DNA from: Candidatus Latescibacterota bacterium
GTDB taxonomy: Bacteria > Latescibacterota > UBA2968 > SICM01
Direction: 5' to 3'
DNA: 64,000 bases
Assembly: GCA_965217865.1 (NCBI GenBank)
Contig: CBDCJO010000002.1
Coordinates: 768,001-832,000, forward strand
Program-made: the position numbers and the translations under genes
Notes under the pieces: generated by a model
Databases searched by the model: none
What the model saw: the letters and a program-made list of their open reading frames with translations, nothing else
Told to the model about the DNA's origin: nothing
Part shown: piece by piece, positions 6,937 to 16,271 of the stretch
Layout of the letters: each line of letters begins with the position of its first letter
Numbering within the stretch: position 1 is the first letter of the stretch

Positions 6937-8670
6937 TCACCCATCCGTCGTCATTGAGAACTCCCGGCCCATTTCGTATCCGTCCAGCCGCTTCAGGGGG
7001 ACCACTCGGAAGTAATCGTCTCCCCTTCCCTTCCATGCCCTCAGGTCTTTGCGATGCCCCATCCGCTTTTGGAAGGCCCACTCGCTTGTCCGAAAGTATC
7101 GATTGAAAGTATCCCAGAAGGCCAGTCCGTCGGCACCCGCTTCATAATAATTGATCGCGATCTCACGGAATGCCCTGGGGGGCATCCGGCGCGGATAAAC
7201 ATCGATATAAATCTTGCTCCTCGGATCACGGGGGAGATCTGTGAATTCGCGTATCTTGGATTGAACCCCCGTACCGTCGTGGTTCCCGTAAACGTGCAAA
7301 TGCGCGACCAGATAGTCCACCAGCCCCTCCTTCAACCAGGTCGGGACATCCAGGGCGTGGAACAGAGATTCCGCCAGACTCGATTGGCCGATCTCCGGAA
7401 GCGCACTGCTTAAGTTGACCGGCACCAGGTAGCAGCTGGGAATGTAGCGGCGCTTGGCTTTTCCGACCTCATCCAGCATCTCTCTGATCTCGCGGAGAAA
7501 CTGTGTGACAAAGCTCGCCCGGGTCCGCCATACCCGCTCGTCGTTGATGGGAACCCGGCGCATGTCCTCACCATATTCCTTCTCAAAGGCCTCGCACACC
7601 GGCTGTTCGTAGTAGGCAAACGGCTGGGAGCGGCTGAACAGGGCGTTCACCCCGTCCGCCTTATAGTCCTCCACCCACTCCCGGAACAACCGCACGTAAA
7701 ACGCGCGCACCTCGGGAAAAGCAAACGACAGGTGGCGAATAGGTTCCCCGTCCGCGTACGTGCATCGCAAGTCGAGATGTTCCGCCATGAACATCCCCCC
7801 GTAATTGGCCATAAGATGTTCCGTCGGCAGCTGCGGACCGGAGAACCGATTCTGGGCAAACAGCTTGACGCCGCATTCGTGCGCCGCCGAGATGGCCTCG
7901 GCAAAAGGATCGATCCCCGAATCGACCAATCCGCGCAAAACCCGCCCCATACCTTCCTGGTCGAAATCCGGCCGGATGAACTCCCCGATTTTTGAAGGGT
8001 AGAACGTGATAGGCCCATAGGCCACAGCATACAGGGCGATGTCGAAATCTGATTCCCTGAGAGGTTCAAACTCCGCGATGAAATCCTCGTGTGTCGTAGG
8101 ACCCCACTGGAAGATGTTTCCTCCATCGTAATTGCCTATCAGCAGTTTGGTTTTCTCCGTGGGAAGCTCCGCCTTCCATGCCTCGAGGGCTTTCGGATCC
8201 ATCGGGACCAACCTCACGTAAACGATGCATGATTCTTCGTGCGACATCGTTCCGCGGGTAGGAGGCGAAAAGATCAGCTCCTGACGGGTCAAGTCCGCGC
8301 ATTTCCAGAAAACCTCCGTCACGTCGAAGGCGGTAAAGACCTTTTCCGGATAGCTTCCGTCCTTTCCGGGATCCGACTCCTCCGGGAGGATTCGGTTGAA
8401 GCCTAAGTCGTCCGAAAGTTTGACGCAGAGCGCACGCTGCTTTTTTTGGCCGTTAAACCCACCGTAATAGATCCCCAGGCGGATCTCGTGCCAACCCTCG
8501 ACTTCGGGATTCAGCGTCAGTGGCGGCGCATCGGTGCCAGGCCGCGTGAACAGCATCACCCCCCTGCCCTCTTCCACTTCGTAATCAACGGCAATCCACG
8601 TTCCGTGGCGGCCATCCCTGCTGATGGCCTCCGAAGGCTCACATCGGGTCAGATCGGAAATCCAGATCAT
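6937..8670 (-). CDS. Hypothetical protein with glycoside-hydrolase-like TIM barrel (GHL10/DUF187-like)
   Basis: LSFAFPEVRAFYV..EWVEDYKADG, DVPTWLKEGLVDY, YEAGADGLAFWD; start placed at the ATG after GGAAGGGG because the upstream ORF extension is the heptamer repeat. Confidence 0.6.
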   Translation of the reverse strand: MIWISDLTRCEPSEAISRDGRHGTWIAVDYEVEEGRGVMLFTRPGTDAPPLTLNPEVEGWHEIRLGIYYGGFNGQKKQRALCVKLSDDLGFNRILPEESDPGKDGSYPEKVFTAFDVTEVFWKCADLTRQELIFSPPTRGTMSHEESCIVYVRLVPMDPKALEAWKAELPTEKTKLLIGNYDGGNIFQWGPTTHEDFIAEFEPLRESDFDIALYAVAYGPITFYPSKIGEFIRPDFDQEGMGRVLRGLVDSGIDPFAEAISAAHECGVKLFAQNRFSGPQLPTEHLMANYGGMFMAEHLDLRCTYADGEPIRHLSFAFPEVRAFYVRLFREWVEDYKADGVNALFSRSQPFAYYEQPVCEAFEKEYGEDMRRVPINDERVWRTRASFVTQFLREIREMLDEVGKAKRRYIPSCYLVPVNLSSALPEIGQSSLAESLFHALDVPTWLKEGLVDYLVAHLHVYGNHDGTGVQSKIREFTDLPRDPRSKIYIDVYPRRMPPRAFREIAINYYEAGADGLAFWDTFNRYFRTSEWAFQKRMGHRKDLRAWKGRGDDYFRVVPLKRLDGYEMGREFSMTTDG

Positions 8671-8683
8671 AATGCCCCTTCCC

Positions 8684-8873
8684 ATTCGTGATTCGTGATT
8701 CGTGATTCGTGATTCGTGATTCGTGATTCGTGATTCGTGATTCGTGATTCGTGATTCGTGATTCGTGATTCGTGATTCGTGATTCGTGATTCGTGATTCG
8801 TGATTCGTGATTCGTTTAATGAATGCAATGAGAATCGTGATTCGTGATTCGTTTAATGAATGCAATGAGAATC
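8684..8873. repeat. (ATTCGTG)n heptamer array: 18 perfect units plus a partial unit, followed by a 37-bp tandem duplication
   Basis: Directly visible; translates as NHESRIT repeats. Confidence 0.97.
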
Positions 8874-8969: not shown

Positions 8970-10058
8970 TCATTCAAAACTCTGCTTTTCGACCAAATAC
9001 TTCCCCACCGCCTTCTGATTCAGACTGTAGCCCAGTCCCGGCCGATCCGGGACTAAATAGCAGCCATCCTCCAGGACGAAAGGTTCGTTCACCAGTGTGT
9101 CCTCCCAAGCCAGGGGACCGATCATGTCATGGGGCTGGGTCATATGGGGCATGCAGGAGGCCACGTGAAGAGCGATGGCAACACCGGGCCCATAGGCCAC
9201 GGTCTGAGACCAGCCCCCGAGGCCAAGCTGATGGGCAAGGCGGGACCATCCCACGGCCTCGAAAGGGCTTTCCGCCCCGAGGATGGCGTAATCGAGCGCC
9301 TGAGCTTGAAACACATGAACCAGATCTTCGCCCCGGAGGTGATCCCCGATCGGGATCCGGATCGATTCCCGAAGACGACACATTTCGGAATAAGAACCTC
9401 CCTTTGCCGGTCTGGGAATGGGGCTCTCCAGACAGTCGATCCGGTAGCCCTCCAACCGATTGGCAAGCTCCTGCGCGACCCGTACCTCCCGAAGACGCCA
9501 CCGCACGTCGGGCCTCACGATCATTTCTGGCGTGACATTCTGGATGGCCTCCACCCGATCCGTCACGTACCGAATCCGCTTTTCGGGTGTGTCTTCATCC
9601 GGCGTAATGCACTTCATCTTGTAAGCCCGAAAACCATGCTCCCATCCCCACAGGACATCCTGGGCCGTGTGTTCGGCCGTCTTGTAACCCGTGCACTGCG
9701 TGACGAAGATTCGATCCCGGAGACGTCCACCGAGCAACTGCCAGATCGGGACCCTGAGCGCTTGCCCGCGAAGGTCCAGGACGATCTGTTCGAAATACCC
9801 GGGAAACGGAACCTTTGTATCGGGGTGGTTCACCTTCAGAACGTCCTTGCCCGACCAATCCCCTATGGACGTCTTTATCTCAAGCAGGGGTACGTCGGAA
9901 TGCAGCTCGGACAGACCCGTCAAGCCTTCGTCGGTCTCAGCTTCTACCAGATAGCGATCCCGGGTTTGATGTTCCGGTTGGCCATATACGTCGTCCGACC
10001 ACCACCATCGGCGTTCCGGGACATTCACCACATACAGGTTGACGCGAGTAATTTTCAA
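8970..10058 (-). CDS. Mandelate racemase/muconate lactonizing enzyme family protein
   Basis: MKITRV, ETDEGLTGLSE, VPIWQLLGGRLRD, YKMK, LESPI, VPDRPGLG. Confidence 0.88.
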   Translation of the reverse strand: MKITRVNLYVVNVPERRWWWSDDVYGQPEHQTRDRYLVEAETDEGLTGLSELHSDVPLLEIKTSIGDWSGKDVLKVNHPDTKVPFPGYFEQIVLDLRGQALRVPIWQLLGGRLRDRIFVTQCTGYKTAEHTAQDVLWGWEHGFRAYKMKCITPDEDTPEKRIRYVTDRVEAIQNVTPEMIVRPDVRWRLREVRVAQELANRLEGYRIDCLESPIPRPAKGGSYSEMCRLRESIRIPIGDHLRGEDLVHVFQAQALDYAILGAESPFEAVGWSRLAHQLGLGGWSQTVAYGPGVAIALHVASCMPHMTQPHDMIGPLAWEDTLVNEPFVLEDGCYLVPDRPGLGYSLNQKAVGKYLVEKQSFE

Positions 10059-10238
10059 AAAACCCCTCGAACCCGCCGGCGATTGGTCTGATACGCATCC
10101 CCAAATCTACGATCGGGATTGGCGTAAATTAGATCAATATACACCTTGATTCGCCGGGTGTCCAGTCATTAGCGCCTGTCTCATGGAAGGGTCACCGGGG
10201 GACCTCACCCTCCCGCGGAAATTATACCCATAATCGTC

Positions 10239-10267
10239 TTGACAGTCATGTCAGATCTATTTACATT
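10239..10267 (+). promoter_or_regulatory. sigma70 promoter with overlapping palindrome TGACA-N4-TGTCA (possible operator)
   Basis: TTGACA-N17-TACATT, 72 nt upstream of the sulfatase ATG. Confidence 0.6.
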
Positions 10268-10338
10268 CGCGTTTCCAATCGTATTTTTTCTTACCTGGAT
10301 CACCTAATTTGTGACCGCAGATACAGGACCACTAGGTC

Positions 10339-11799
10339 ATGCCCTCACCCAATCTCTTATTCATATTCACCGATCAGCAGCGGTGGGACACCCTGGGTGC
10401 CTACGGCAACCCAAGAATATCGACCCCCCACCTCGACCGGCTGGCCGCAGATTCGATCCTTTTCCGCAAGGCCTACGTATCCCAACCCGTCTGCACGCCT
10501 TCCCGTTCGACCCTGGTGACGGGCCTCTACCCCCATACAAACGGCTGCATCTCCAACAACATCGCCTTGGCCGAGAAGGTACACGCATTCCCGGAGATGA
10601 TGACCGCGGGGAACTACGAAACCGCATACATCGGGAAGTGGCATCTCGGGGACGAGATCTTCCCTCAACACGGTTTTAAACACTGGGAGAGCATCGAGGA
10701 CAATTATTGGAAATTCTACTCGTCCCCCGAGAATATGCCCGTCAATTGCAGCTATTATCATTTCCTGAAGAAGCACGGATTTCAACCCGATGTCCGACAC
10801 GGGGACTTCACCTGTTTTTCCCGGTTCTTCGCAACCCGCGTCCCCGAGGACTACAGCAAGCCGGGTTTCATCGCGGAGGAGACCTGTCGTTTTATCGACG
10901 AGAACCGTTCCAGCCCGTTTATCCTGTTCGTGAATTTCCTCGAACCCCACAGCCCGTTTTTCAGCTGTCTGGATGACCTCTACGATCCCGCGGATGTGAT
11001 TCTGCCATCAAATTTTTGCGCGAACATGACAGAGGATGTCCCGTTAAGGACCCGATTGTCCAGTGAGAGAGCACGTCGCACCGGGGATTCCTGGCCATGG
11101 CCTCTGGAGGACGAAAGCGAATGGCGAAAATTCATCGCCCACTACTGGGGATCCGTCAGTCTGGTGGACAGGAGTGTGGGACGGATCCTTACGACCCTTG
11201 ATAATTGTGACCTGAACCGGAATACGATCGTGGTATTCACGAGCGACCACGGGGACATGATGGGCAGTCACGGAATGATCGAGAAGTCTGTCATGTACGA
11301 GGAAGCCGTCAGGATTCCCTTGATCCTCCGAACACCGCAGCTTGGTTTTGAAAAACGCGTCGTGGATCAACCGATAAGCCAGGTGGATCTGGTACCCACC
11401 CTCCTTAGCATGATGGGTCAGGCCGTCCCGGATCACCTCGAAGGGACGGACCGTTACCCATTCCTCAAAGGCCAGGCCGATTGGGGACTCGAAGATGTGT
11501 TCATGGAGTGGAACGGTACAGCCGCAGATCCCGAACCCGACGAATTTCCGGACCTTGTCTCCCCTGAGCAGATCTCCGCGATCCAGGGCAAACGCGTGCG
11601 AACAGTCCTGACGGGTGATGGCTGGAAGTTCAACTGGAACGAGACCGGAGAACACGAGCTCTATTTCCTGAAAGACGATCCCGGCGAGTTGACCAACCTG
11701 TATTCAGACGAAAAACATACCGCAGTCTTGGCGGACCTTAAGGAGCGTATTCGGAAATGGCAGGACAGGACAGGAGACACGGTAGAAATCGGGGACTAG
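10339..11799 (+). CDS. Formylglycine-dependent sulfatase (Cys-type)
   Basis: PNLLFIFTDQQR, CTPSR..TGLYP, GKWHLG, FTSDHGDMMGSHG. Confidence 0.95.
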   Translation: MPSPNLLFIFTDQQRWDTLGAYGNPRISTPHLDRLAADSILFRKAYVSQPVCTPSRSTLVTGLYPHTNGCISNNIALAEKVHAFPEMMTAGNYETAYIGKWHLGDEIFPQHGFKHWESIEDNYWKFYSSPENMPVNCSYYHFLKKHGFQPDVRHGDFTCFSRFFATRVPEDYSKPGFIAEETCRFIDENRSSPFILFVNFLEPHSPFFSCLDDLYDPADVILPSNFCANMTEDVPLRTRLSSERARRTGDSWPWPLEDESEWRKFIAHYWGSVSLVDRSVGRILTTLDNCDLNRNTIVVFTSDHGDMMGSHGMIEKSVMYEEAVRIPLILRTPQLGFEKRVVDQPISQVDLVPTLLSMMGQAVPDHLEGTDRYPFLKGQADWGLEDVFMEWNGTAADPEPDEFPDLVSPEQISAIQGKRVRTVLTGDGWKFNWNETGEHELYFLKDDPGELTNLYSDEKHTAVLADLKERIRKWQDRTGDTVEIGD

Positions 11800-11976
11800 G
11801 GGTCGGGGAACGTGAGACGTCAGACGTGAGATGTGAAACGTGAAAAGAAGCAGTAGCAGGAAGAGCAAAGGCGGGGGCCAGAGGTCGGAGGTCGGGGAAA
11901 AGCCACGAGGTTTATCGGTTTCTCTTCGTCTTTGGGACAGTTCAAATTAAATATGTCATCCTACTATGTTAAAAGT

Positions 11977-12194
11977 CAAAGGGAATCTACAGATTGTTGC
12001 CTCACCGCTTTCAAACCCAACCAGCCTACTATTCGAGGTCACACGAAGCGCCACAAGTTATCGATCCGGAGGATTTTGGAGAGGATTCGGCACACTGAGC
12101 CACGGAGTAATCTAAAGCTCTTCAAGGATGACAACGCCGTTCCTCCCTCCGGATCGAAAGAGGTGTTTAAAAAGGGTGCGGACAGTCGTTAGGC
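11977..12194 (-). ncRNA. Predicted bridge/seek RNA of the IS110 element
   Basis: ~220-nt non-coding region 3' of the transposase; 12-bp stem 12061-72/12146-57 encloses segments matching both halves of the target. Confidence 0.75.
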
Positions 12195-13259
12195 TTAAAC
12201 CAGTCCCAGCACATAGGGCTCTTTGCGAATCAGGATCCCTCGGAGCCGAATAATTAGAATCCTGGCAATCGCGACAATAGCTCGTTTGGATCCGGCCCGA
12301 GTTTTGATCCGGTCATACTTTTCTCTCATCGCACCATCTTTTTTGATGACTCGCCATGCGGCCTCAACCAACAGGCACCGTAAGCTGGATCTGCCCTGAC
12401 GCGTGATGTGTCCAAACCGGAGGTTTTCCCCACTCGAATATTGTGAAGGCGTTAAGCCTATATAAGCGGCCAACTGATCAGCCTTTCGAAATCGTGCGAC
12501 GTCCTGCAGTTCCAACAGGAGCTCCATGGCACTGATCCAACCGATACCTGGCGTAGAGGTCAGGATCTCCACGCGATCCCGATATCCATCGCTTTTTGAA
12601 AGTTCCTTCAGCAGGTTCGTCTGCTTTTCGATCTGCTCTGACTGGAAGTCGAATTCATTCAGCAAGGTCTGAAAACATTCTTGCTGATACCGATTCTGAA
12701 ACCTGAAGGCTCTCAACTTATCGATAAAGACCTGGCTCCATTTGCCACTCGATTCTCGAGGCAATTCAATCCCATTCACCCGAAGCTCTGCTTTGATCCG
12801 ATTTTGAGTCCGAACCCGATTGCCGATGCACTGACGACGACGCCTGGACACTTGCCGATGCGCACGCTCTTCCACAGTCGGAACATATATGGCCTCTAAC
12901 TGGCCAGACTGTAGGCACTCAGCTAACTTTCCGCTATCCAGACGATCATTTTTCACCCGACTACCAGAGCGTTGAGGAATCAAATGAGGAGGCGTCACCC
13001 GCGCATCTACCCCATATTCGATCAGCCGATCATATACCCAAAACCCAAAATATCCTGCCTCGTAGACGACCGAGATCTGTCCCGCGTCGGAGAACCGGGA
13101 CAACAATCGCTCCAGGTCCTCCCAACGGCCACCAATGTTGTTGGAAAAAAGGACCAAACCATCTTCGGATCGAATGGTCACGTGCCAACTTTTGCGATGA
13201 AGATCGATAACCATAAAAAGACACTTGCCTTTCCAGGCCTGTTTCGAATATCTTCCCAT
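12195..13259 (-). CDS. IS110 family DEDD recombinase/transposase
   Basis: VIDLHRKSW, VYEAGYFG, VKNDRLDS, STPGIG, AYIGLTPSQYSSG, KRAIVAIAR; RBS AGGAGG. Confidence 0.95.
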   Translation of the reverse strand: MGRYSKQAWKGKCLFMVIDLHRKSWHVTIRSEDGLVLFSNNIGGRWEDLERLLSRFSDAGQISVVYEAGYFGFWVYDRLIEYGVDARVTPPHLIPQRSGSRVKNDRLDSGKLAECLQSGQLEAIYVPTVEERAHRQVSRRRRQCIGNRVRTQNRIKAELRVNGIELPRESSGKWSQVFIDKLRAFRFQNRYQQECFQTLLNEFDFQSEQIEKQTNLLKELSKSDGYRDRVEILTSTPGIGWISAMELLLELQDVARFRKADQLAAYIGLTPSQYSSGENLRFGHITRQGRSSLRCLLVEAAWRVIKKDGAMREKYDRIKTRAGSKRAIVAIARILIIRLRGILIRKEPYVLGLV

Positions 13260-13419
13260 CTTGAGCCTCCTGTGAGAGAGAGTTATTGTGAATCTACGGG
13301 ATTTCCAATAAACATATCCTCTCAAGCAGTGAGGCTCAACTACTTTTAACATAGTGACTGAGCCCCTTCACCGCGTTCAGGATAAACTCCGGCGAAGGAT
13401 CTCGATTTATGAGGTTTTT

Positions 13420-14319
13420 ATGGACAACATGTTCTTGAGATGGTGGGGATGCGGGGCGTTCGAGATTATCATGGGCGACGTCAATATCGCCGTAGATCCG
13501 TATCTGTTCGGGGAAAATTTGGAAAAGGCCGAGCCTATCTTCGATTATATCTTCATCAGCCACGAGCACTTCGACCACTGCCATCCCCCGACTCTGCAGA
13601 AGCTCTGCAAAGGGGACCGGTTCAAGAAAATCTTCGTGAACATCGGCTGCCTGACACCCAATGAACCGATCGACAAAAACTACGGAGACGCGGCCTTCGC
13701 TCGAGACCTTCCGATTAACAAACACATCCCGGCGGAGATGATCCAGGTCATCTATCCCAAGTACCTGTCAGACGACGAGCGAAGTTTTCCGGGACCGTTT
13801 GAGGCGGACCTCGGGCCCATCCGCATGGAAGCGGTCGAGAGCGGTGAGAACTCTCGGCCGGACCTGCCGACCTGCGGATACATGATCACCCACACCGAAA
13901 AGAACGTCTCCTTCTATCACATGGGGGACTTGACCAAGAATTTTCCCGCGCTCGAAAACCTGAAAGGCCGGGTGGACTTCCTGGTCCATATGAAACTCGG
14001 GACCCTCATGAAACCGGGGAAAGGTCGCGGAATATGGGATGTCATGTCGGACTTTATCGACATCGTACAACCCCGCTTCTTTATTCCCACACACTACCGG
14101 ACAGACAGCACTTCGGATCCGATACCCCACGGGCACTGGCCCCCGAACCTGACGGATACGAACGCATACTTCGAAGACCTGAGGGATCACATTGGGGACC
14201 GGACCCGGATACTTCCGTTCACAGCCGGAGTTCAATACGAAGTCGAAATGCCCTCAAAGAAGGTCAAGTGGGCGTGGGACTTCTTCAACACCTGGGATGT
14301 CCCACCCTGGAGGGGATAA
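13420..14319 (+). CDS. MBL-fold metallo-hydrolase (UlaG-like)
   Basis: LRWWG, IAVDPY, SHEHFDH, YHMGD, IPTHY. Confidence 0.85.
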   Translation: MDNMFLRWWGCGAFEIIMGDVNIAVDPYLFGENLEKAEPIFDYIFISHEHFDHCHPPTLQKLCKGDRFKKIFVNIGCLTPNEPIDKNYGDAAFARDLPINKHIPAEMIQVIYPKYLSDDERSFPGPFEADLGPIRMEAVESGENSRPDLPTCGYMITHTEKNVSFYHMGDLTKNFPALENLKGRVDFLVHMKLGTLMKPGKGRGIWDVMSDFIDIVQPRFFIPTHYRTDSTSDPIPHGHWPPNLTDTNAYFEDLRDHIGDRTRILPFTAGVQYEVEMPSKKVKWAWDFFNTWDVPPWRG

Positions 14320-14320
14320 G

Positions 14321-15247
14321 ATGGGAGGATGGATTGCGAAAAGCCCCATGCCCACACCGCGGCACGATCTGCAGGCGATCCCCGTCGGAAACCGGATCTA
14401 CGCAATCTCAGGCGGAGACGACATCACCACGGAGGTCGTGGAGATATACGATGTGACCGAGGACCGGTGGACATCGGGACCCGCCATCCCGACCAAAAGA
14501 GGGTGGTCCGGATCTGCCCTCCTGGACGATTTGATCTACATCATCGCGGGCAAAACAATCCAGACCCCGGAGGAAAAATCCCGGACCAGGGATGACGGGA
14601 ATTATACCATCAGGAATACGGTTGAGGTCCTGGACCTGAACAGCGGTATCTGGTTATCCCGGAAACCTCTGAGCGCGTCCAGGGCTGGCCTGGCGGCCAC
14701 GGTTTGCAAAGGAAGGATCTATGCGATCGGCGGAAATACCATGGACAACGAGCAGCGGAACCACGGGACCATCCTGGAAAGAGTTGAAATATACGAACCG
14801 GGTATCGACACGTGGTCCCCGGGGGTGCCCCTCCCCGTGGCTGTTCAGGGACCCGTCGTGACCACGATAGATGATCGGATCTACGTCACCGCAGGAAGAT
14901 CGAACGAGGGGGTATTCCCGGCCTACTGCCTGGTCTTCGACCCGGAGACTCAAAAATGGGGCGACCTGGCCCCCATTCCGACCCCCCGATGCGACCCCGG
15001 TTCCGTTGTTGTAGATCGACGAATCTATACATTCGGAGGATGGGGGCCGAACCGTTATTACGATAACGTCGAAATATACGATATCGACTCGGACACCTGG
15101 TCATCCGATGCACCCCTTCCCGAGAAGAAGGCCTGGATGGGAGCGGCGGCCGTGGGAGATCGGATCTTCGTCATGGGCGGTGCTTATAAAAAGACGGACG
15201 GACCGGGATTCAAGTGGATCGATGACCTTCACGAGTTCGTCATGTAA
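14321..15247 (+). CDS. Kelch-repeat beta-propeller protein
   Basis: Six kelch repeats (IYAIGG..VEIYD..W..PMPTPR). Confidence 0.9.
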   Translation: MGGWIAKSPMPTPRHDLQAIPVGNRIYAISGGDDITTEVVEIYDVTEDRWTSGPAIPTKRGWSGSALLDDLIYIIAGKTIQTPEEKSRTRDDGNYTIRNTVEVLDLNSGIWLSRKPLSASRAGLAATVCKGRIYAIGGNTMDNEQRNHGTILERVEIYEPGIDTWSPGVPLPVAVQGPVVTTIDDRIYVTAGRSNEGVFPAYCLVFDPETQKWGDLAPIPTPRCDPGSVVVDRRIYTFGGWGPNRYYDNVEIYDIDSDTWSSDAPLPEKKAWMGAAAVGDRIFVMGGAYKKTDGPGFKWIDDLHEFVM

Positions 15248-15392
15248 GGCAGGCACGTGATTCGTTAAGAATCGATGCGAAAAATTTTTTGAACGGTCAA
15301 GGATTTTAATCGATAGGATTCGGGCTTTTCCGAGTCACGAGTCACGATCCACGGACCCCGGCTTTTCCGATCCACGGAATAGAGACTTCCTT

Positions 15393-16271
15393 ATGGCTAT
15401 GATTACGATGGGGGATGTCAAGCCCCTCTTCGACGCAACCTCCCTCTTAAGCGATCCGATCCGCTTACAGGATCGCGCTCGCCAGGAGGGATACCTCTAT
15501 TTTAAGGGATTGATCGATCCTCTCCCGATCTTGAAACTCCGACAGCAGATCCTCCAGGTTTGCCTCGAGCAAGGGTGGCTCGACGACGGCTTCCCCCTCG
15601 ACGAAGGCATTGTCAAAAAAGGCGTGTCCTATGTCGAATCCGACACTCCCGATTGGCGTTCCTTCTATTGCGACGTACAGAAACACCATGATTTTCACGC
15701 CCTTGCGCTTCACCCCTCCCTTCTCGATATGTTCGAAAAACTTTTCGGCGAGGGCGTACTCCCTCACAGCCGCAATATTTGTCGGGCGATTTTTCCTGCT
15801 TCGGAAACCTTTACCACACCCCCTCACCAGGATCACTTTCCGATAGGGGGAACCGAAGAGTCCTGGACCGCGTGGATCCCCATTGGGGATTGTGGTGCGG
15901 AGATGGGGGGACTGGCGGTTGCGCCGGGATCTCAACGTCGGGGATTTCTGGAAGTCCATTCCGCTAAGGGCGCGGGGGGGCGTACCGTGGATGTAGAAGC
16001 CGATGCCACCTGGGCAAGCGGGGACATGCTTTGCGGAGACGTGTTGATCTTTCACAGCCTGACGGTTCACCAGGGACGTGACAATCAGACTCCGGATCGG
16101 CTGCGCGTCTCCTGTGACTTCCGATACCAGCCTATGAGCCATCCCGTTCGTGAGGCCTCGCTTCTTCCCCATATGAGGTGGCAAACCTGGGACGAAATTT
16201 ACGAATCGTGGCCCCAAGACGATCCTGTCAGGTATTACTGGAAGGACTGGGATCTGAACGTCGTTCCGTGA
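15393..16271 (+). CDS. Phytanoyl-CoA dioxygenase (PhyH) family Fe/2OG enzyme
   Basis: PPHQD, GGLAVAPGSQ, GDVLIFHSLTVH, RVSCDFRY. Confidence 0.9.
   Translation: MAMITMGDVKPLFDATSLLSDPIRLQDRARQEGYLYFKGLIDPLPILKLRQQILQVCLEQGWLDDGFPLDEGIVKKGVSYVESDTPDWRSFYCDVQKHHDFHALALHPSLLDMFEKLFGEGVLPHSRNICRAIFPASETFTTPPHQDHFPIGGTEESWTAWIPIGDCGAEMGGLAVAPGSQRRGFLEVHSAKGAGGRTVDVEADATWASGDMLCGDVLIFHSLTVHQGRDNQTPDRLRVSCDFRYQPMSHPVREASLLPHMRWQTWDEIYESWPQDDPVRYYWKDWDLNVVP

Follow-up and report, generated by a model that had tools for sequence, protein, structure and literature searches.

Structure of the element and its insertion site

Positions are given in the window, the whole 64,000-nt stretch of DNA that was analysed, unless prefixed C1: or C2:, which refer to this genome (G000). 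Window positions 11961-13359 contain an intact IS110-family element with the layout of the IS1111 group, and its gene lies on the minus strand. The element spans from a CT at its right end (11961-11962) to a CT at its left end (13358-13359), a short core that is repeated at both boundaries without an ordinary target duplication. A previous reading of this DNA, made from the letters alone (hereafter the sequence-only reading), named this a CT core; the name holds for the strand opposite the transposase but not for the coding strand, where the core is AG, as at both ends of nearly all relatives. Excision of the element in silico leaves ATGTCATC-CT-GAGCCCC...GAAGGATCTC. Here ATGTCATC, the left target, is the left half of an interrupted TGTC-tagged palindromic repeat (11953-11960, plus strand), and the rest of that repeat follows the element (13360-13403, plus strand). 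A contig of run X6 represents the empty allele: it jumps from 11960 to 13358 (1397 nt, two letters fitting either side), which independently confirms the boundaries. The empty site, the core positions, the guide matches described below and the CTACTAT at 12026-12032 were all found where the sequence-only reading had placed them.

A perfect 11-bp sub-terminal inverted repeat is located 7 nt from the left end and 3 nt from the right end. On the minus strand, the right end (11963-11976) is made of the 3-nt extension and the repeat, perfect over 14 bp when taken together, and the left end (13342-13357) carries the repeat (13352-13342) after an extension of 7 nt, core included. The same repeat is imperfect in most relatives, matching ungapped at 5-7 of 11 positions in 22 of 30 clusters (clusters are defined below). 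Non-coding sequence amounts to 232 nt 3' of the gene and 100 nt 5' of it, with a ribosome-binding site AGGAGG (13266-13271, minus strand) before the ATG at 13259.

Joining the computed ends produces TTGACT, 17 nt and TATGTT, reproducing the circle junction that had been claimed. The -35 hexamer of this predicted junction promoter lies at 11974-11979 and the -10 hexamer, inside the left end, at 13353-13348 (both minus strand); the promoter pattern is kept in 25 of 30 clusters of relatives. No circle junction was found among the contigs of eight public runs, although contigs cannot show its absence. A promoter-like site reading outward from the integrated right end (11979-11950) was rejected as within chance (one found versus 2.1 expected). 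A search of window 9000-16000 against Rfam, with E up to 1, returned no match.

The recombinase

The gene (12195-13259, minus strand) encodes a 354-aa IS110-family recombinase (PF01548 and PF02371; NF033542, 210.6 bits against a cut-off of 140). Both the RuvC-like DEDD domain and the Tnp domain with its catalytic serine are present: D19, E67, D105 and D108 are all in place, and S276 aligns with the serine of the 'YESG' motif of IS621/ISCro4. The IS1111 motif GL-P----S(t)G occurs as GLTPSQYSSG, in a protein just over the quoted length of 330-350 aa. The profile match to IS621/ISCro4 reaches only E 2e-19 to 7e-21. The best named relative in the plasmid collection is ISSso6, at 34.8% identity, and IS4321/IS5075 stand at about 23%. 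By its layout and motif the element appears to belong to the IS1111 group, and by identity it is distant from the classical members of that group.

One residue sets this recombinase apart. Position 17, two residues before the first catalytic aspartate, is Gly in 59 of 60 aligned proteins and Val in this one only. The same letters for Val17 are present in contigs of runs X1 and X2, so the substitution is not an assembly error. Both full genomic copies carry Val17, which suggests, without showing it, that the protein is active. Relatives with Gly17 are represented by one fragment in this genome and also occur in runs X3, X4 and X9; this assembly has no intact Gly17 copy.

Copies in the genome and the target repeat family

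The genome holds two full copies of the element, different at one base (12116, in a loop), together with two fragments of a 93-94% relative (C1:573371-573891 and C2:3576158-3576860). These fragments, the first of which has another insertion sequence beside it, resemble pieces of a disrupted Gly17 copy. The sequence-only reading had raised the question of whether other copies insert in the same REP. The second full copy does: it sits in the same repeat family with the same 10-nt flank, and both full copies lie behind ATATGTCATC and before GAG, continued as GAGTC at the second copy.

A third right flank, CT-GAGCG, is joined to the left end of the element in runs X2, X4 and X9 (three of four runs, two studies). 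It matches a repeat-like site at C2:3380983 that is empty in this genome. Assuming the left flank of this genome, no more than 4 of 7 letters at the third site fit the 5' target guide. The fragment at C2:3576158-3576860 and run X9 have a 3' target guide that differs by one base and is an exact fit to GAGCG.

In the genome, TGTCATCCTGAGC occurs 16 times, compared with 0.32 expected. Matches to the first arm of the repeat are accompanied by the second arm in 37 of 91 cases in the genome and in 0 of 46 in a shuffled genome. The 14-letter target has 6 exact genome matches, 3 of them without a second arm as defined here, and 28 matches within one mismatch, of which 19 fall in two-armed repeats. According to these target counts, the repeat family is modest and most of its members are unoccupied. 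Another sub-type of repeat, CCTGAGCGGAGTTCC...GTCGAAGG, has an AT-rich leader and is found at 17 genome sites (e.g., C2:3380983, C2:767854, and C1:12396), and one of its members is the probable third insertion site.

The target is a multi-copy TGTC-tagged hairpin whose stem begins with AT and which is linked to a small GIY-YIG gene. More specifically, about nine TGTC-tagged repeats cluster at C2:2605890-2607107 around a 111-aa single-domain GIY-YIG gene (C2:2606604-2606822), and this cluster around an Ssn-like gene is the likely source of the family. A common TGTC tag, an AT stem start, a short loop and a linked GIY-YIG gene are shared with CGTC/TGTC-tagged REPs and with the NTS-like repeats of Ssn nucleases (PMC3733652; PMC11893778). 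Unlike those repeats as they are described there, the stem here is interrupted by three mismatched bases at its centre and frequently contains a long insert. The term 'IS110' is absent from the text of both papers.

Relatives of the element

The protein search yielded 1310 homologues at E up to 1e-60, from which 96 loci were fetched. Two partial copies, 15 loci in which the donor-loop anchor was absent and 2 that were mis-anchored were removed, leaving 77 non-coding regions, grouped into 43 clusters at 80% identity. One representative per cluster entered the tests, each covariation test using the clusters with the needed flank (30-37). Locus L079 was excluded from the 5' donor-guide test, and L088 from the consensus fold and the second tree; a quick tree was used. 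The ends are uniform among relatives: an AG core (coding strand), a left end AG-Y-N-ACTATG and a right end CATAG-N-AG. The protein profile matched 3 of 167 other genomes of the phylum, and a DNA search with the non-coding region found no match in 60 other genomes of the class. No relative was found on viral contigs; five viral matches to the end pattern were dropped as chance since no recombinase accompanied them.

Some relatives occupy quite different sites. In L001/L016 and L030, which account for 3 of the 12 loci that have a GTT flank and for two independent sites, the insertion point falls precisely within the GTTAG box of attC-like hairpins. Their left flanks end in GTT before the AG core, and the guide ACGUUAG is common to several other relatives. 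This position in the GTTAG box differs from the ISKpn4-type site as quoted in PMC13604230. Six copies in genome G051 (L107-L110), at 58% identity, form an element of 1581-1582 nt with a right end of about 420 nt, which contains additional hairpins and, after the guide RNA, a segment in duplicate; some of these copies are in tandem arrays of a larger repeat. At L003:1880-1990, a second donor-loop-like segment (CUCGGAU...CACGAAUAGCAG) lies just past the right end, perhaps the remnant of another copy.

Target guides covary with the flanking DNA

On the minus strand of the 3' non-coding region, the candidate 5' target guide UGUCAUCCU (12133-12125) is identical to the left target plus core and lies upstream, in the RNA, of the 3' target guide GGCUCAG (12101-12095), the complement of CT-GAGCC, which is followed by a U at 12094 (12094-12101 in all; complement of the donor A at 13357). 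The match to the complement of the coding strand is thus 5' of the other target match in the RNA, as in the IS1111 group. The chance expectations for the three matches in the 232-nt region (the two target guides and CTACTAT) are 0.0013, 0.013, and 0.012.

Comparison of each guide with the flank of its own element gives 140 of 180 matching letters for the 5' target guide (30 clusters; shuffles 54.7 ± 6.9) and 146 of 170 for the 3' target guide (34 clusters; shuffles 51.7 ± 7.2), while neighbouring guide registers give only 31-50 matches. The signal extends about 7-8 letters beyond the core for the 5' guide and 5 letters for the 3' guide. That the matches are chance is a proposition to which we give almost no credence: each match is short and the fold of the single sequence is unremarkable, but expected counts of 0.0013 and 0.013 and, above all, the register-specific covariation of the target guides with their own flanks across 30-34 clusters refute it.

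In the 42-cluster consensus fold, both target guides are unpaired between covarying helices. A conserved covarying helix (12146-12135 with its 3' arm 12082-12092, minus strand, many pair types per column) closes the target-binding loop around them, and an inner hairpin (12103-12124, minus strand), weak in this copy, appears in the family consensus. The sequence-only reading enclosed the guides in a 12-bp stem (12061-12072 with 12146-12157). In this copy the stem is a perfect inverted repeat; its 3' arm (12061-12072, minus strand) is a conserved segment, but in the family consensus this arm closes the donor loop instead, through mostly invariant pairs, so the 12-bp stem need not be the conserved closing helix. 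The same reading named, as grounds for refuting it, guide segments that are base-paired and do not covary with targets in homologues. The guides do covary with their flanks and are unpaired in the consensus, but when this RNA is folded alone GGCUC is paired (probability 0.98-1.0), as are three letters of the other target guide, which counts in part against that reading. Overall, the non-coding region folds no better than shuffles (z -1.0).

The register of the 5' target guide is itself variable. In the window element, L005 and the six G051 copies, an additional base separates this guide from the inner hairpin, compared with most relatives; in the shifted register, 7 of 8 letters match in five of the G051 copies and 6 of 8 in one. 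Elements with the shifted register fall in one branch (SH-aLRT 89, quick tree), in which L036 keeps the usual register and L039 is ambiguous. In L005 (84% identical) the guides have changed, and the sibling repeat that it occupies fits the changed guides.

Donor guides and a candidate handshake base

The sequence-only reading did not clearly identify a second donor guide. It is located at 12060-12056 (minus strand), where the 5' donor guide UAACU reads the left end TGACT (13355-13359) with one mismatch in this element, the A at 12059. The 3' donor guide AUAGUAG reads the right end plus core and is followed by a candidate handshake G at 12025, the complement of the target C at 11960 (12025-12032, minus strand). 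Between the two guides lies the inner hairpin of the donor-binding loop (12034-12055, minus strand), which has covarying pairs in the 42-cluster consensus.

Both donor guides follow the ends of their own elements. In 34 of 35 clusters (13.2 in shuffles) the variable letter of AUAG-N-AG tracks the right end, changing with it between C, T and G. Agreement of column 12059 with the left end is complete, at 37 of 37 cluster representatives (28.0 in shuffles), of which only 5 carry the rarer states; the window element, whose cluster is represented by L005, is the exception with A where G is needed. At column 12058, 26 of 37 match the left end and 10 more form a G-T wobble. The donor matches extend only 3-5 letters past the core and are partly paired in the consensus fold.

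The position equivalent to 12025 was named the donor-loop handshake guide in IS621 by Hiraizumi et al. (PMC11208158; PMC13626964). In our family, letter 12025 agrees with the target letter next to the core in 29 of 35 clusters (12.9 in shuffles) and, when every locus is counted, in 46 of 60; four clusters have a fixed base there despite variation in the target base. On the tree, letter 12025 and the target base each change 9 times, with only 1-4 independent pairs and no significant sign test; too few independent contrasts are available for this covariation to be significant. The target-loop handshake position shows no signal with the donor (15/37 versus 13.0) and leans to the target (17/35 versus 9.0), which is not the IS621 pattern. 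The second handshake letters show no signal either (10/35 versus 9.2 and 3/37 versus 4.9). In the window element, both handshake positions are in the insertion-favouring state.

Proposed mechanism and alternative explanations

Based on the observed anatomy and boundaries, the empty allele, the second copy and the family-wide covariation of target and donor guides, we consider it highly probable that the element and its predicted two-loop bridge (seek) RNA guide insertion at the CT cores of TGTCATCCTGAGC repeats. The earlier proposal of a programmable recombinase aimed at the REP family of this genome gains support from the second copy in the same family and from the guide covariation. By analogy with IS621, ISEc11 and ISPa11, the element would excise as a circle, the joined ends of which would form a promoter that transcribes the gene through into the RNA. 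The 3' structured region, likely transcribed, would be the two-loop bridge (seek) RNA, with four segments that match the landing site and the element's own ends. The target loop would then open both strands of the repeat and the donor loop both strands of the junction (dual-strand R-loops), and strand exchange linked to Ser276 at the CT core would result in insertion in one orientation. G12025 would likely pair with the target only after strand exchange (the handshake), a timing that would favour insertion over excision.

A different reading of the RNA is that the target loop (about 12146-12082) is the sole active part, in the form of a short processed RNA, with the protein reading the ends at the sub-terminal repeats and the donor matches being incidental or a relic. 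It has a precedent in ISEc11, for which an 82-nt RNA with target matches only supported movement (PMC11187229), and it would account for donor matches that are so short, partly paired in the consensus and in one case mismatched here. We regard it as quite improbable, given that the variable letter of the 3' donor guide and column 12059 track the right and left ends in 34/35 and 37/37 clusters, respectively, and that in CazIS110-1 the full-length RNA is needed for both excision and integration (10.1101/2025.10.25.684509). Somewhat less improbable, though still unlikely, is that the RNA is as we describe and that Val17, together with the mismatch at 12059, cripples the recombinase, the copies having been either mobilised in trans by a relative with Gly17 or moved shortly before the substitution arose. 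The near-invariance of Gly17 so close to a catalytic residue and the existence of Gly17 relatives (the genome fragment; runs X3, X4 and X9) speak for this possibility; against it, both full copies have Val17, at different sites and one base apart, and an intact Gly17 copy is missing from the assembly.

The role of the repeat divides us evenly. The guides may aim at a plain 14-letter word, landing in repeats being a by-product in which hairpin or repeat biology is not involved. Relatives with the same scaffold use unrelated words, some of them attC-like, half of the exact 14-mer matches lack the second arm, and the third insertion site belongs to another repeat sub-type. On the other hand, this repeat superfamily hosts both genomic copies as well as L005, and two-armed repeats make up 19 of the 28 sites within one mismatch. 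The plain-word reading is compatible with the bridge mechanism, recognition being probably by sequence and the repeat probably supplying safe intergenic sites.

Whether RNAs of the IS1111 type read the donor as well (bridge model) or the target only (seek model) is a live disagreement. Donor guides that covary with the ends, and one base that covaries with the target, support the bridge model for this family, as judged from sequence comparison. With this element the candidate programmable recombinases gain a further member, whose closest named counterpart is about 35% identical. Every guide position is mapped, so it is cheap to test, and the covariation yields three single-base rescue tests.

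Comparison with known systems

Recombinases guided by bridge RNAs were described as a class in 2024, and ISPpu9 reportedly resides in REPs. Durrant et al. (PMC11208160) predicted bridge RNAs within the right end for 93% of IS1111 elements and presented six elements, including ISCARN28 and ISPa11, with predicted target and donor guides. Siddiquee et al. reported the guide order of IS1111 seekRNAs as reversed and left a different mechanism open (PMC11187229). ISPa11 targets a REP of Pseudomonas aeruginosa, and natural re-targeting is documented (PMC11187229). Handshake bases have been described for IS621 (PMC11208158; PMC13626964) and for IS110 orthologues.

Our element resembles ISPa11 in its 3' non-coding region, in sub-terminal repeats 7 and 3 nt from the ends, in a predicted junction promoter, in two target matches with the coding-strand complement first, and in a REP target (PMC11187229). 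ISPa11 as described there differs in repeat class and guides, and here the donor guides and a candidate handshake base are resolved by covariation. With IS621/ISCro4 the element shares the DEDD residues and catalytic serine, the CT core and, as a candidate, the donor-loop handshake base, and IS621 also targets a REP (PMC11208160; PMC11208158; PMC13626964). In IS621, as presented in those papers, the RNA is 5' of the gene and the CT core is on the coding strand, whereas here the RNA is 3' and the core on the opposite strand; furthermore, the left donor guide here has only about 3 letters plus core, and the target-loop handshake signal is absent in the family. The ISSso6/ISCARN28 group has the same YEAG...KTDRRD type of recombinase motif (rows of the Durrant et al. 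supplement; source data of Siddiquee et al.), but ISSso6 is only about 35% identical and, in the stretch compared, its ends do not have the AG-T-N-ACTATG / CATAG-N-AG pattern. The short family motifs had no match in the readable parts of the Durrant et al. supplements. In the literature searched, no paper connected IS1111 with the donor-binding loop of a bridge RNA.

On the window plus strand, the guides are ordered left target, right target, left donor, right donor, around a CT core, the same order as in IS621. The same core, four-guide order and candidate donor-loop handshake on the opposite strand suggest that the reversed order is an orientation effect. We are therefore moderately inclined to view elements with the IS1111 layout as inverted bridge machines of the IS621 type, the "reversed guide order" of seekRNAs reflecting orientation and not another mechanism. 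In the same reading, this family would constitute a ready natural library of re-targeted guides (repeats, attC-like sites, and others), within which the sub-branch with the left target guide shifted by one base follows GIY-YIG-linked repeats. Earlier publications already cover the bridge mechanism and, for elements of the IS1111 type, the 3' RNA, as well as REP targeting and natural re-targeting; the family-level covariation of donor guides and handshake base is the only part that goes slightly beyond the publications consulted.

Neighbouring sequence

Two repeat tracts lie on the same side of the element. Short degenerate direct repeats follow the sulfatase gene at window 11800-11900; the contigs of several runs meet or part there, which suggests that the repeat tract is variable. 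Further away, at window 8684-8815, a perfect 7-bp tandem repeat (ATTCGTG, 18.9 copies) is found before the gene at 6937-8865 and, if translated, encodes ITNHESR repeats.
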